Shown in pieces: positions 346 to 11,765 of a DNA stretch of 17,189 bases (positions are counted from its first letter, which is position 1; each line of letters starts with the position of its first letter). A program made the translations under genes and the position numbers. The stretch is from Candidatus Odinarchaeia archaeon (GTDB lineage Archaea > Asgardarchaeota > Odinarchaeia > Odinarchaeales > Odinarchaeaceae). The notes under the pieces were generated by a model. That model was not told the DNA's origin. It ran no database searches and worked only from the letters and a program-made list of their open reading frames with translations. The DNA is taken from contig JAHQXC010000023.1 of assembly GCA_029856525.1 (NCBI GenBank), positions 1-17,189 on the forward strand, read 5' to 3'.

Positions 346-396
346 TTCTTTTATCAATTTATTTTTCAATCTTTCAGTAAGGGTGTATGCCTTGGA

Positions 397-534
397 ATGG
401 GATTCGCTTTAACCGTGCAGTGCGCGTTCAGATTTAACCCTTACTTGAAAGTAGACTCGTTTTTAAATATTTTTTCACCTAAGGCCTCTACTACTAGCTT
501 ATTCTGGGCTTGGCGTTGGTTAACGTGGCCTTAG
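397..534 (+). CDS. Putative Trp-rich leader peptide upstream of trpB2 (start uncertain: ATG397, GTG415 or TTG445)
   Basis: Frame +1 reads MGFALTVQCAFRFNPYLKVDSFLNIFSPKASTTSLFWAWRWLTWP*. TGG codons lie at 505, 511, 517 and 526, and the stop TAG is at 532-534, 65 nt before the trpB2 ATG. Confidence 0.55.
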   Translation: MGFALTVQCAFRFNPYLKVDSFLNIFSPKASTTSLFWAWRWLTWP

Positions 535-570
535 ACGCCACTGCAATGGTTAGCCTATCCCTCTAAAATA

Positions 571-577
571 TTTTTTT
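571..577 (+). terminator. T7 tract between the leader ORF and the trpB2 SD (candidate attenuator terminator)
   Basis: Seven consecutive T at 571-577, followed by SD GGAGGT at 588-593 and ATG at 600. Oligo-U tracts are the known archaeal termination signal. Confidence 0.4.
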
Positions 578-599
578 AAAAAATTATGGAGGTTAAATT

Positions 600-1907
600 A
601 TGTCTAATTTGAACGATGTGAAGGTTCAACTTGGATTGGATGAAATGCCTAGGAGATGGTATAATATATTAGCGGATATAAAATCAGAGTTTCCACCGTA
701 TCTTAATCCGGCGACGAAGGAGCCTATTCCAATGGAGGCTTTGATGAATCTGTTTCCTAAGGAGTGTGTGAAGCAAGAGTTTGCAGAGGATCGCTATATA
801 AACATTCCAGAGGAGCTTTTAGAGTATTACTATAGACTCGGCCGGCCTTCCCCATTATATAGGGCCAAGCGACTTGAACAAAGACTTAACACGCCTGCGA
901 TGATCTTCTTTAAGAGAGAGGATTTATCTCCAACTGGAAGTCATAAACCTAACACCGCGATAGCGCAAGCATACTATGCTGAGAAGGAGGGTGTTAAAAA
1001 TCTTACAACTGAGACAGGAGCCGGGCAGTGGGGGAGTGCTTTAGCCTACTCTTGTGCGATGGTGGGTATAAAATGCACTGTTTTCATGGTAAGATGCTCT
1101 TATAATCAGAAACCGTATCGGAAATATATTATGAAGCTTTTAGGAGCTGATGTTTACGCTTCTCCGAGTGATAAAACAGAGTACGGTCGAAGCCTTCTAT
1201 CTAAGGACCCGAATCACCCCGGCTCTCTCGGTATCGCTATCAGTGAGGCGATAGAGATGGCGGTTAAAAACCCTGGTACAAAGTACACTCTCGGCAGTGT
1301 TTTAAACTATGTTATATTGCATCAAACAATTATCGGTCAAGAACTTATAGAACAGATGAATAAACTTGATCTTACACCTGATTATTTAATAGGCTGTGTC
1401 GGCGGTGGCAGTAATTTCGCCGGCTTCAGTTTCCCGTATCTAGGTAAAATATTGAGAGGTGAATTAGCATCCCCTGAGGTTTTAGCGGTTGAACCTGTCG
1501 CCTGTCCGTCTCTTACAAAAGGTGAATATAGATATGACTTCGGTGACACAGCGAAAACAACACCCTTAATAAAAATGTATACTTTAGGATGCGAGTTTAT
1601 TCCACCATCAATTCATGCAGGCGGATTAAGATATCACGGCGCCGCTCCGACTGTGAGTCTGCTGAGAGATGAAGGGTTCATTAAAGCAGTAGCGTATTCA
1701 CAGGATCAGGTGTTTCAATGCGCTAAGCTTTTCGCTGAGTCGGAGGGTCTTATACCAGCCCCTGAGACCAGTCACGCGATATGTGCAGCTATAGATTTAG
1801 CGCGGGAGGCTAAAAAGAGAAATGAGCGGAAGGTGATCGTCTTCAACTACAGTGGCCACGGTTTACTCGATATTGAAGGGTATAGGACTGTTCTGAAACT
1901 TGACTAA
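600..1907 (+). CDS. trpB: Tryptophan synthase beta chain, TrpB2 type
   Basis: PLP lysine motif PTGSHKPNTA, plus TTETGAGQWG, YTLGSVLNYV, GCVGGGSNFAG, IHAGGLRYHG and PAPETSHA. The N-terminal extension (MPRRWYNI, LYRAKRLE) is typical of TrpB2. SD GGAGGT at 588-593. Confidence 0.96.
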   Translation: MSNLNDVKVQLGLDEMPRRWYNILADIKSEFPPYLNPATKEPIPMEALMNLFPKECVKQEFAEDRYINIPEELLEYYYRLGRPSPLYRAKRLEQRLNTPAMIFFKREDLSPTGSHKPNTAIAQAYYAEKEGVKNLTTETGAGQWGSALAYSCAMVGIKCTVFMVRCSYNQKPYRKYIMKLLGADVYASPSDKTEYGRSLLSKDPNHPGSLGIAISEAIEMAVKNPGTKYTLGSVLNYVILHQTIIGQELIEQMNKLDLTPDYLIGCVGGGSNFAGFSFPYLGKILRGELASPEVLAVEPVACPSLTKGEYRYDFGDTAKTTPLIKMYTLGCEFIPPSIHAGGLRYHGAAPTVSLLRDEGFIKAVAYSQDQVFQCAKLFAESEGLIPAPETSHAICAAIDLAREAKKRNERKVIVFNYSGHGLLDIEGYRTVLKLD

Positions 1908-1908
1908 C

Positions 1909-1920
1909 CCTCCTTTTTTT
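1909..1920 (+). terminator. Pyrimidine/T7 tract after trpB2
   Basis: CCCTCCTTTTTTT follows the trpB2 stop directly and overlaps the convergent tyrA stop codon. It resembles the tract after hppA. Confidence 0.55.
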
Positions 1921-9628: not shown

Positions 9629-9637
9629 CTAAAACAT

Positions 9638-10711
9638 CTACCTCTCTATTATCGTCTCCTGTATTTGTGTTCCGAAATGTCTGGCGCCCTCTCTGATGTT
9701 TAACAGAACTTGGTCTCCTGGTTTTAACTGTGTTATTGAAACAGGTTCACCTTTACTGTCGACTAGTCTAATCGTCTCCGCGTTTTGAAGTATTATCTTA
9801 TAGATTTCCCCGTTAACCTCAGCTTCTATGAGTATTAGCGGCCTAACCTCGATTTTAACACGGCCGATGATCGCCGGGTATGTTTCCCCTTTACTATTCA
9901 CTATTAACACTTCATCTCCTGCTTTCAACTCTGAAAGATATCTTGTTTTATTATTTGGAGCTAACACATAGGAGTGGACTGGTCCAGCGTTTACTCTGAA
10001 CGGTCTAGCTGCCACATACTCTGACTCTAAGCTTTCAGAGTGAACTAAGAAGAGTCCTTTCGATTGCGATCCTACTAGTATTCCCTCTCCTTTTCTGAGT
10101 ATTGAACATGTGTCTATGCAAACTCGGTCTCCTACTCCTAACGGTTTTATCACCGTGATTTTAGCTGGTGTTAACTCAATTCTCTGTTTAACCAGCTGTT
10201 TCAATACTCCTGCAGCTTCTATAACCTGTTCGACTGTAGGCTGTTTTAATAAAACTCCATCCACACCTTTCTCTAATGTTTGTAGGAAGAGCTTAGCCTC
10301 CTCTATGTTATCAACCTCTGCTATTAGCTTAGTTTTACTGTTCTGGAATTCAGCTATTAAATTCTCTAATGGTATTATCTTCCAGTTTTTAGCGGTTATT
10401 ATGAAATAGGGTAGAGTGTTTTTCTCCCCTATTATTCTCTTAATGTCTTCATTGGAGTTTATCTCATATCTTCTCGCCTGTATTTTATCGCTTGCCGGAG
10501 TCTCAGCGTTCTCCGCTATTTGAAAGTCAGCGGCTGTTTCTGGACTGGTATAATAGACGGCTATCTTTAACTGGCCTATTTTTCTAGCTTTATCTATATC
10601 TTCTTCATCCAGTATTACTGTTGTTATCCCTCTTTCCAGCGCTGTTGTTAAAACCTCTTTTTTCAAACTCCACTTTTTATTTGATAAATCAACCCAGATT
10701 TCTTTATTCAA
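9638..10711 (-). CDS. aroB': 3-dehydroquinate synthase II (AroB', MJ1249 family)
   Basis: GDRVCIDTCS, RPFRVNAGPVHSY, YLSELKAGD, GRVKIEVRPL and LQNAETIRL. It lies next to ADH synthase. Confidence 0.94.
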   Translation of the reverse strand: MNKEIWVDLSNKKWSLKKEVLTTALERGITTVILDEEDIDKARKIGQLKIAVYYTSPETAADFQIAENAETPASDKIQARRYEINSNEDIKRIIGEKNTLPYFIITAKNWKIIPLENLIAEFQNSKTKLIAEVDNIEEAKLFLQTLEKGVDGVLLKQPTVEQVIEAAGVLKQLVKQRIELTPAKITVIKPLGVGDRVCIDTCSILRKGEGILVGSQSKGLFLVHSESLESEYVAARPFRVNAGPVHSYVLAPNNKTRYLSELKAGDEVLIVNSKGETYPAIIGRVKIEVRPLILIEAEVNGEIYKIILQNAETIRLVDSKGEPVSITQLKPGDQVLLNIREGARHFGTQIQETIIER

Positions 10712-10725
10712 CTTTTCACACCTGT

Positions 10726-11502
10726 CTATAATTCTTTAGCAGCCTCTTTCACAGGCGCATCATCCACTATTATCCTGTATAATGCTCTAGTCATCCCTGT
10801 TACATTCTTATGCTGGAAGACGTTTCTACCCATTGAAACACCGATCGCACCGGCTTCCATAGCTCCTTTAACCATTTCTAACACGGCTAGATCTGAATCC
10901 ATTTTAGGACCGCCAGCTATCACCACAGGGACCGGGCATCCTTCTACAACTTGTCTAAACGTTTCCGGGCTGCCGGTGTAATTTGTTTTAATAATATCCG
11001 CGCCTAACTCCGCTCCAACTCTTGCAACATGAGCGACTGTTTTAGGGTCGAACGGGTCTTTAACATTTTTTCCACGAGGATACATCATAGCTAAAAGCGG
11101 TATCTGCCATTCATCGCATGCTTCAGCTATTTTACCTAGTTTCATAAGCATCTCCGGTTCTCTTTCGCATCCTATATTCACATGTACTGAAACCGCGTCG
11201 GCTCCGAGTCTTAACGCTTCCTCAACGCTTCCAACTTGAACTTTCCAATTCGTATCAGGGCTCATTGAAGTTGAAGCTGAGAAGTGTACGATTACCCCTG
11301 TTTTGGGAACATGGTTTAGGCTTCTAAGTATTCCTTTATGGGTGAGAATCGCTGTAGCTCCCCCTTCTTCAAGCTTTCTAATAGTGTCCTCTATTTTCAC
11401 TATTCCCTCAATCGGACCATTACTTACCCCATGGTCCATGGGTATTATTACAGCTTTTCCATTCTTTAAAATTCTAGAAAGTCTTAGTTGCTTTCCGTTC
11501 AA
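10726..11502 (-). CDS. aroA': 2-amino-3,7-dideoxy-D-threo-hept-6-ulosonate (ADH) synthase, class I aldolase family
   Basis: IPMDHG, ADAVSVHVNIG, MMYPRG, ELGADIIKT (Schiff-base Lys), VVIAGG and GRNVFQ. It is the first gene of the cluster, next to aroB'. TTG start with AGGAGG SD. Confidence 0.88.
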   Translation of the reverse strand: MNGKQLRLSRILKNGKAVIIPMDHGVSNGPIEGIVKIEDTIRKLEEGGATAILTHKGILRSLNHVPKTGVIVHFSASTSMSPDTNWKVQVGSVEEALRLGADAVSVHVNIGCEREPEMLMKLGKIAEACDEWQIPLLAMMYPRGKNVKDPFDPKTVAHVARVGAELGADIIKTNYTGSPETFRQVVEGCPVPVVIAGGPKMDSDLAVLEMVKGAMEAGAIGVSMGRNVFQHKNVTGMTRALYRIIVDDAPVKEAAKEL

Positions 11503-11634
11503 AACTCTAACCTCCTTTTAAATATTTTGAACTGGTATTCTTTCTTATAATTAGAATTCGTTAAGAGAATGCTATTCAATTTGAGGGTGGATGCGATTTC
11601 ACAACGGTTTAAGCGGGGTGTATTTAAAATTAGT

Positions 11635-11703
11635 TTAAGCGGAGTATAGACTGGTAAGCGTCGAGTATTCTCCAAAAAAATTATACCTCCAACACCCCAC
11701 CAA
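11635..11703 (-). CDS. Putative aromatic-rich leader peptide of the shikimate operon (22 aa)
   Basis: TTG at 11703-11701 (or GTG at 11700) lies 6 nt after SD GAGGTG (11715-11710). It reads MVGCWRYNFFGEYSTLTSLYSA* with TAA at 11637-11635. Five aromatic codons (W, Y, F, F, Y) fall within nine consecutive positions. Confidence 0.65.
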   Translation of the reverse strand: MVGCWRYNFFGEYSTLTSLYSA

Positions 11704-11746
11704 ATCCTACACCTCTAAGATAACGCTGATAATTTAAGCATATATT

Positions 11747-11765
11747 TGTTTAAATACTTTTCTCT
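11747..11765 (-). promoter_or_regulatory. BRE/TATA promoter for the shikimate operon leader
   Basis: The minus strand reads AGAGAAAAG then TATTTAAACA, just past the GTPase stop. The predicted start is near 11724-11727, about 20 nt before the leader TTG. Confidence 0.6.

Follow-up and report, generated by a model that had tools for sequence, protein, structure and literature searches.

Does an archaeon adjust the expression of its aromatic amino acid genes by having ribosomes read short leader peptides? The question is raised by a contig of 17,189 nucleotides (nt) from a Candidatus Odinarchaeia archaeon, the whole of which is here called the window (contig C16 of the 127 that make up a 1.32-Mb genome). 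On it trpB2, encoding a TrpB-like enzyme, converges on a nine-gene minus-strand shikimate/tyrosine operon (the aro operon) that runs from 11502 to 1919, and both trpB2 and the operon are preceded by a short open reading frame (ORF) with clustered aromatic codons. To judge from the sequences, it is rather probable that both ORFs are translated cis-acting leaders that would sense the supply of charged tRNA, that of Trp for trpB2 and those of Trp, Tyr and Phe for the shikimate operon. Such a mechanism was put forward in an original prediction made from the letters of the window, which placed the two ORFs at gaps of 65 nt from trpB2 and 132 nt from the ADH synthase gene that opens the operon; both are present, and the gene content and convergent layout that it described have been borne out by Pfam and NCBIfam matches.

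The following elements have been identified on the trpB2 side.

327-343, plus strand: box resembling an archaeal TFB recognition element (BRE) and TATA box (CCGAAAATATTATATAC), candidate promoter for the transcript of the trpB2 leader, unchanged in four genomes of the same genus while its flanks vary
379-385, plus strand: AAGGGUG, similar to a Shine-Dalgarno (SD) site, 11 nt from ATG 397
397-534, plus strand: trpB2 leader ORF, 45 codons, from ATG 397 to TAG 532-534, its stop 65 nt before the trpB2 ATG
505-507, 511-513, 517-519 and 526-528, plus strand: Trp codons of the leader

By its likeness to the archaeal consensus, the box at 327-343 probably acts as the promoter of the leader transcript. 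BRE/TATA boxes had been predicted before both leaders, and they are present there and kept or nearly kept in the four Odinarchaeota genomes that were compared (this genome and three others, with TrpB2 proteins 90-92% identical). The leader ends in ...L-F-W-A-W-R-W-L-T-W-P-stop, with the four TGG codons all in one frame and within 8 codons. The original description of the codon bias before trpB2 as "Trp only" holds in that only Trp is clustered, but the ORF also contains 6 Phe codons and 1 Tyr codon if it starts at ATG 397; the other possible in-frame start is TTG 445. The frame that opens at ATG 387 (16 codons, one Trp) was rejected as the leader, its SD spacing being 1 nt and its end not conserved.

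Start-to-stop ORFs of at most 70 codons that have three or more TGG among their last 12 number 8 in the entire genome (six frames); 7 of these overlap long ORFs, and the trpB2 leader is the sole intergenic one, the background expectation being ~0.001 per 350 nt. It ranks second among 4403 intergenic short ORFs for the clustering of a single residue, and the genome-wide single-residue scan gave no further candidates for cognate-codon leaders. The intergenic region before trpB2 is conserved in the sister genomes at least as well as the coding flanks: no change is seen in the promoter box, at ATG 397, in any of the four TGG codons or at the stop, and the ORF is open in each of the four genomes, its only two indels being of 3 nt. 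Selection acts on the frame, the cluster and features at the nucleotide level, and the peptide itself is not under selection, since the substitutions in the ORF (12, 11 and 14 at the three codon positions) lack a third-position bias.

Leaders of this kind have also been found before trpB2 in other Asgard families. When 40 genomes of the phylum were sampled first, ORFs with a Trp cluster were seen to end just 5' of trpB2 in three other families, with the tails ...G-W-P-W-R-G-P-W-Q-stop, ...W-H-P-W-R-S-W-R-W-Q-stop and ...W-A-S-S-W-H-W-stop, the first of which precedes a clean hairpin and long runs of T. By a strict criterion -- a start-to-stop short ORF with three or more TGG among its last 12 codons, in the ~450 nt upstream of trpB2 -- the first 26 loci gave 4 sense and 0 antisense hits (binomial P <=0.004 against a conservative background). 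For the second sample 300 genomes of the phylum were drawn and 60 further trpB2 upstream regions retrieved; here the same criterion gave 20/60 in sense and 1/60 in antisense, bearing out the conservation of Trp codons in relatives that the original prediction had named as its check. The leaders of the second sample belong to families f6, f9, f16, f21 and f27, and Trp leaders stand before trpB2 in at least 8 families overall (f1, f3, f6, f9, f16, f18, f21 and f27) and ~14 genera, counts that overstate independence, as the Asgard genomes sampled are kin.

Across families the Trp codons alternate with others (TGG-NNN-TGG, with CGT, CAG, CCT or GCT in between), the stop comes 0-2 codons past the last Trp in nearly all leaders, and several f9 leaders (~16-21 codons) have an ATG and the N-terminus M-A-[TP]-V. 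The Trp leaders of different Asgard families thus appear visibly related at the sequence level, and the tight stop and conserved start would argue for a translated ORF over a bare UGG-repeat RNA. The trpB2 gene is itself widely exchanged; the closest TrpB2 proteins outside the genus come from many phyla in metagenome and species-genome scans. A mixed-phylum set chosen by TrpB2 similarity showed no enrichment (sense 10/102, antisense 9/102, by a loose criterion of at least 3 TGG in 10 codons, stop to stop, that was discarded as unspecific), and the Trp leader is for this reason considered a trait of the Asgard lineage rather than of the trpB2 family.

Two further kinds of short ORF have been observed near trpB2 in these families. 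The f6 leaders (L237-L241, L257 and L279-L283) have 1-3 Trp and the ending ...Q-W-[HQ]-W-G-P-R-G-P-V-stop, ~170-190 nt before trpB2; they form a distinct sub-type, and their conserved G-P-R-G-P-V tail hints at a peptide- or RNA-level role besides that of the Trp codons. In f15 and f8 (L005, L006, L008 and L234) an SD is followed by mini-ORFs with a single Trp, M-[AE]-G-G-Y-V-W-L-stop and M-M-G-D-S-I-W-V-stop, with a small HTH-like gene between them and trpB2, directly before the latter; these may be a second type of Trp-codon upstream ORF (uORF), with the single Trp beside the stop.

The aro leader, at the opposite end of the cluster, is much less secure than the trpB2 leader, and its support comes from conservation and from other families. 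Its elements in the window are these.

11762-11748, minus strand: BRE/TATA-like box (GAAAAGTATTTAAAC), candidate promoter of the aro leader transcript, nearly invariant in four genomes (one change, AAAC to AAGC, in G003)
11716-11710, minus strand: SD, AGAGGUG
11635-11716 including the SD, minus strand: aro leader ORF, 22 codons, from TTG 11703 to TAA 11637-11635, 132 nt before the ADH synthase gene

Here too the box probably serves as the leader's promoter, and the SD is strong, with a 6-nt spacing to the TTG start. The peptide, M-V-G-C-W-R-Y-N-F-F-G-E-Y-...-Y-S-A, has aromatic codons at 6 of its 22 positions (W5 at 11691-89, Y7, F9, F10, Y13 and Y20), with W/Y/F/F falling within 6 codons and the N-F-F codons making a T7 run (11680-11674). 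In each of the four genomes the ORF has exactly 22 codons and no internal stop, though codons 11-18 are nearly unalignable; position 13 is aromatic throughout (Y/Y/F/Y). The Trp, Tyr and Phe codons predicted before the common shikimate pathway are thus present, in a core, C-W-R-Y-N-F-F, that is invariant in the four genomes with synonymous TGT/TGC and AAT/AAC changes. A mini-ORF from ATG 11740 on the same strand was rejected; it is not conserved and is probably upstream of the transcription start.

Among the other families, the f16 operon opens with a gene of ~425-450 codons, whose position and size point to a putative aspartate kinase, and continues with ADH synthase. Before the operon stands the mini-ORF M-W-R-P-S-F-Y-stop, which has an SD layout like that of the Odin aro leader and shares W-R-x-x-F-[FY] with it, and directly after this mini-ORF comes a 55-codon ORF whose tail consists almost entirely of Tyr, Phe and Trp codons (9/12 aromatic and shuffle P <0.004 in one genome, P 0.01 and 0.017 in two others). 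In f18 (G028; L143:1386-1470 and 1581-1637, reverse complement) there are two tandem Tyr-rich leader ORFs (P 0.013), each ending inside an 8-bp hairpin (GCUAUACC / GGUAUAGC) that takes in Tyr codons, with T-runs after the first unit; by its sequence this would be the most attenuator-like layout among the aro-operon leaders examined. Aromatic codons before the aro operon of relatives, also named as a check, have therefore been found in f16 and f18 and are missing in f3, f7, f19, f21, f28 and f30: the first three of these six have two copies of a 19-nt inverted-repeat motif instead of an aromatic leader, and in the last three no aromatic leader was found before the equivalent operon. The aromatic aro leader is real but patchy, and the Odin version is the least extreme.

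The inverted-repeat motif (consensus ~TTGGTGATGCCCTGCCAAT; L142, L144, L297-L300 (f19), L296 (f7), L141 (f3)) is located between a TATA-like box and the operon for aspartate kinase, aspartate-semialdehyde dehydrogenase (ASD) and ADH synthase. Its variant stems, GGUG...CGCC and GGUG...UGCC, still pair, with ATG in the loop. The motif stands where the aromatic leader would be, and may be either an operator for a transcription factor or a small hairpin in the RNA.

How such leaders might act on the genes behind them was considered from their predicted folds, for which consensus (RNAalifold) and minimum free energy (MFE) structures were used along with constrained folds. The helices and candidate output elements are as follows.

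371-451, plus strand: predicted helix P1, arms 371-384 and 437-451, 14 bp with one bulge (sequence reading; constrained folds)
406-555, plus strand: predicted helix A:D, codons 4-10 (406-427) with post-stop 533-555 (RNAalifold consensus, MFE)
479-486 with 527-534, plus strand: predicted helix nested within 406-555 (RNAalifold consensus, MFE)
508-516 with 535-545, plus strand: predicted competing hairpin of Trp/Arg codons with post-stop ACGCCA, -13 to -15 kcal/mol in four genomes
559-564, plus strand: anti-SD CCCUCU, candidate output element
571-577, plus strand: U7 tract, candidate output element (T6-7 in 4/4 genomes)
588-593, plus strand: trpB2 SD, GGAGGU
11713-11708 with 11622-11617, minus strand: predicted aro helix P_out, GGUGUA (SD flank) with UACACC (MFE of 4/4 genomes)
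11701-11693 with 11646-11638, minus strand: predicted aro helix P_in, start region with last codons (MFE of 4/4 genomes)

P1 as predicted encloses the start of the trpB2 leader and sequesters its SD-like site; it is invariant in the genus and so without covariation support. P_in stays paired throughout (100%): three changes affect one side and preserve pairing, and no double change occurs. In G003 GGUGC/GCACC replaces the GGUGUA/UACACC of P_out (seen by eye, the pair-count alignment being off by one there). The two leaders have in common that the initiation region of each is predicted to pair with the segment just 3' of its stop. Alternative pairings are predicted as well: P1 against A:D, the Trp region against A for the post-stop segment, and the anti-SD:SD hairpin (559-564 with 588-593; predicted in 3/4 genomes, -6.9 to -7.3 kcal/mol). 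The 132-nt aro spacer is poorly conserved and has no conserved U-run in the four genomes. The T7 run inside the aro leader would not be influenced by stalling at codons 5-13, because it lies too near the start codon; it is more likely a pause site or merely the Phe codons.

In the mechanism that we propose, a ribosome would slow at the clustered cognate codons, which would alter either the folding of the leader RNA or the distance between ribosome and polymerase, and this in turn would set the expression level of the downstream gene. In the trpB2 leader, ribosome occupancy would govern whether the post-stop segment is free. A free segment might affect read-through of the U7 tract, by way of oligo-U or aCPSF1/FttA-type termination, and/or the anti-SD:SD hairpin, releasing the trpB2 SD. 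Translation of the leaders, stalling as the signal and the output step are all points that we infer.

Several results weigh against ribosome sensing. The original prediction spoke of structured RNA, and helices are indeed predicted, but none of them, on either side, is statistically supported: the trpB2 leader fold is not significantly below shuffles (z-score -1.57) and there is almost no compensatory covariation among the four close sequences, with 1 of 62 predicted pairs changed on both sides for trpB2 and 0 of 15 tested pairs for aro. Pairing of the Trp-codon segment with the post-stop segment is predicted in 18/24 leaders of other families, but the z-scores are weak (mean -0.63 over the 24). 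Folds constrained by a ribosome footprint at the Trp codons or at the stop reveal no clear starvation-ON logic. No bacterial-type (hairpin-plus-U) terminator was found in 250-700 or 11450-11850 (0 sites), in agreement with what had been said of both leaders, and the T5/T6 runs inside the trpB2 leader and the T7 run inside the aro leader imply that oligo-T alone is no strong terminator. To these are added the SD-like spacing of 11 nt before the trpB2 leader, which is long, and the conservation of that leader outside its cluster, which looks RNA-level. The flat substitution patterns (in the aro leader, 7, 12 and 11 at the three codon positions, again with no third-position bias), the inverted repeats before the aro operon of some families and the lack of an aromatic leader in others belong here too.

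Some of these points would be expected if the ORFs were incidental and a protein or a tRNA recognised the leaders as cis-acting elements in RNA or DNA: a TRAP-like Trp-activated protein on UGG repeats at 3-nt spacing, a leader that binds tRNA (UGG being complementary to the anticodon of tRNA-Trp and also to the 3'-CCA) or a transcription-factor operator. Such an explanation fits the flat codon-position patterns of both leaders, the operator- or hairpin-like tandem repeats at the same aro operon, the near-regular TGGNNN repeat of many families, since (UGGNNN)n sets every TGG in one frame automatically, and the one f16 genome in which CGG replaces the Trp codon of the mini-ORF and GGAGG is kept. 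We nevertheless regard it as unlikely: almost all leaders stop 0-2 codons past the last TGG, the ATG and N-terminal residues recur in several f9 leaders, indels come in multiples of 3, and the aro leader has a properly spaced SD. In addition, no match to any of 4227 Rfam families, Trp_leader (RF00513) and T-box included, was found on either strand of the window at E values up to 1 (cmscan), and no candidate binding protein is encoded beside the Odin leaders. It is similarly improbable that translated uORFs tune expression constitutively (through one-shot translation, reinitiation or mRNA stabilisation), without amino-acid sensing and with the codon bias as a by-product of UGGCG:CGCCA RNA pairing. 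The predicted pairing of initiation region and post-stop segment would fit self-limiting translation equally well, and the 65-nt gap is short enough for reinitiation at trpB2, yet this would leave unexplained both the match of Trp to trpB2 and of Tyr/Phe/Trp to aro in independent families and the fact that no other gene in the genome has a Trp-cluster ORF.

There is very little to recommend the idea that the ORFs encode small peptides with a function of their own (a membrane-active or signalling micropeptide rich in Trp, for instance) and lie beside the pathway genes by chance; a C-terminal motif of the W-x-W-R-W type does recur across families and a hydrophobic 45-residue product is conceivable, but the signature of purifying selection is absent outside the cluster, the N-terminal parts of different families show no relation to each other, Pfam and NCBIfam gave no match to the peptide, and the ORF directly precedes trpB2 in the same orientation in every case. 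For the aro ORF by itself, a conserved 5' untranslated region whose aromatic codons arose by chance in an AT-rich leader, with T7 as a pause or terminator signal, is doubtful, though it deserves to be taken seriously. TTT and TAT codons are common, the F-F codons coincide with the T7 run, 24 other intergenic short ORFs (4836 scanned) pass the W+Y+F window test, and the shuffle P of 0.06-0.08 means that composition alone is not significant here; on the other side, ORF length is fixed though the middle has diverged, the changes inside the invariant peptide core are synonymous, position 13 stays aromatic, and the W-R-x-x-F-[FY] mini-ORF and extreme aromatic leaders occur at the same operon in f16 and f18.

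Sensing by ribosomes is favoured because it explains the product-matched codon clusters, their place near the ends of short ORFs, the kept frame, start and stop, and the exclusive association with trpB2 and the aro operons. The charged-tRNA sensing by stalling of the original prediction has thus gained from the recurrence of cognate-codon leader ORFs in relatives, but on the aro side it is far less secure. The sequence comparisons support the view that cognate-codon leader ORFs are functional elements. It is, in our estimate, close to an even question whether Asgard archaea have a phylum-wide homologous family of Trp-sensing leaders, together with lineage-specific Tyr/Phe/Trp leaders on the ADH-type shikimate operon, that would be read by ribosomes and have an archaeal output (oligo-U/FttA termination and/or SD sequestration by pairing of initiation region and post-stop segment).

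The genes that these leaders precede have been assigned by Pfam and NCBIfam. The trpB2 product scores 684 bits against NF009057, above the curated cut-off of 366, and ADH synthase 348 bits against TIGR01949, above the cut-off of 299.

600-1907, plus strand: trpB2, TrpB-like pyridoxal phosphate enzyme (NCBIfam NF009057/TIGR01415, E 5e-206; Pfam PALP)
1919-11502, minus strand: aro operon, comprising the nine genes below
10726-11502, minus strand: ADH synthase, first gene of the operon (TIGR01949)
9638-10711, minus strand: DHQ synthase II
8939-9628, minus strand: type I dehydroquinase (DHQase)
7845-8927, minus strand: ASD
6947-7840, minus strand: shikimate dehydrogenase
5545-6441, minus strand: GHMP-type shikimate kinase
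4201-5541, minus strand: EPSP synthase
2811-4211, minus strand: chorismate synthase-chorismate mutase fusion
1919-2806, minus strand: prephenate dehydrogenase

A tRNA scan of the window found none. Between the shikimate dehydrogenase and shikimate kinase genes, which are ~500 nt apart here and abut in the three sister genomes, the operon is interrupted by an insertion specific to this genome (6442-6946). Its core, ~6526-6745, belongs to a family of dispersed ~200-nt repeats, of which this genome has at least 15 further copies on its other contigs (70-88% identity), and the insertion could bring its own promoter into the aro operon.

This genome also has a full trpEGDCFBA operon (contig C99 = L055:1806-8308), next to a tRNA gene that has an intron; an SD and a mini-ORF of 7 codons, M-G-N-Y-V-W-I-stop (L055:1814-1837), come before the operon, and the mini-ORF overlaps the annotated trpE start. 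The operon is missing from the corresponding site in the three sister genomes, in which no TrpB1-type gene was found with the query used. Since trpB2 is the sole Trp-synthase-type match to that query there, its leader may control the whole of Trp salvage in those genomes.

The single-residue scan also brought up ORFs at other loci. The top-ranking short ORF of the genome is M-S-S-S-S-S-S-S-stop (contig C13:4276-4302; L231:1277-1303), which uses five different Ser codons. On one side of it is a tRNA-like sequence, judged by eye, and on the other the 3' end of a phosphoglycerate kinase gene that runs towards it; no gene downstream has an obvious link to serine. A Phe-rich short ORF precedes a PolB gene.

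Ribosome-mediated attenuation is a textbook mechanism that, to our knowledge, has been established only in Bacteria. A full-text literature search found no leader-peptide attenuation in archaea, and the papers that it returned on leader-peptide or uORF attenuation were all bacterial. Transcription and translation are coupled in archaea, but termination differs from that of bacteria. If the proposal is true, the Archaea would have their first case of amino-acid attenuation, with a possible bearing on how uORF control arose in eukaryotes. No known group is more closely related to eukaryotes than the Asgard archaea, and a conserved product-matched leader in them would give a testable case of translation-sensed control in the archaeal lineage closest to eukaryotes. 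Two leaders tuned differently, to Trp and to Trp+Tyr+Phe, at the ends of one cluster would moreover provide a built-in control of specificity.

Among known systems, the closest in layout to the trpB2 leader is trpL of E. coli and Salmonella (RF00513), likewise a short 5' leader ORF of a Trp-synthesis gene with Trp codons clustered near its stop, a Trp-codon segment predicted to pair with a post-stop segment, and a U-run before the structural gene. Unlike trpL, the Odin leader is in an archaeal host, with a BRE/TATA promoter and no Rho/NusG-type context; it has four Trp codons alternating with others in place of a tandem pair, lacks both a G+C hairpin abutting the U-run and an Rfam match, and precedes a stand-alone trpB2 and not trpEDCBA. 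The aro leader resembles E. coli pheL/pheA in being a leader ORF enriched in aromatic codons before an aromatic-pathway operon, but it mixes Trp, Tyr and Phe, precedes the common (ADH/DHQS-II) shikimate pathway, shows modest enrichment (6/22 codons), and has no terminator that could be found; in E. coli the common aromatic pathway is controlled by repressors and feedback inhibition.

The Odin leaders also recall those of B. subtilis, where repeated triplets (the TRAP/trp leader) or tRNA-complementary ones (the T-box) are the element sensed. These need no leader translation, whereas in the Odin ORF a start, SD and immediate stop are conserved and no T-box match was found. Leader-ORF attenuators have been described in Actinobacteria, among them mycobacterial poly-Cys leaderless short ORFs (PMC1262725; bioRxiv 10.1101/834739); as far as these accounts go, they too are cognate-codon short ORFs 5' of amino-acid genes, brought out by comparative genomics and in some cases without a classical terminator, but they are bacterial, and the likeness to the Odin leaders is drawn from their description. 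With the GCN4 uORFs, the fungal arginine attenuator peptide and bacterial TnaC the Odin leaders would share control of a downstream ORF by the translation state of a uORF, though those systems use reinitiation or nascent-peptide arrest and not a cluster of cognate codons. While they stand outside the Rfam Trp_leader family and do without its defining terminator, we lean towards the view that the Odin leaders work like an attenuator of the trpL/pheL type.

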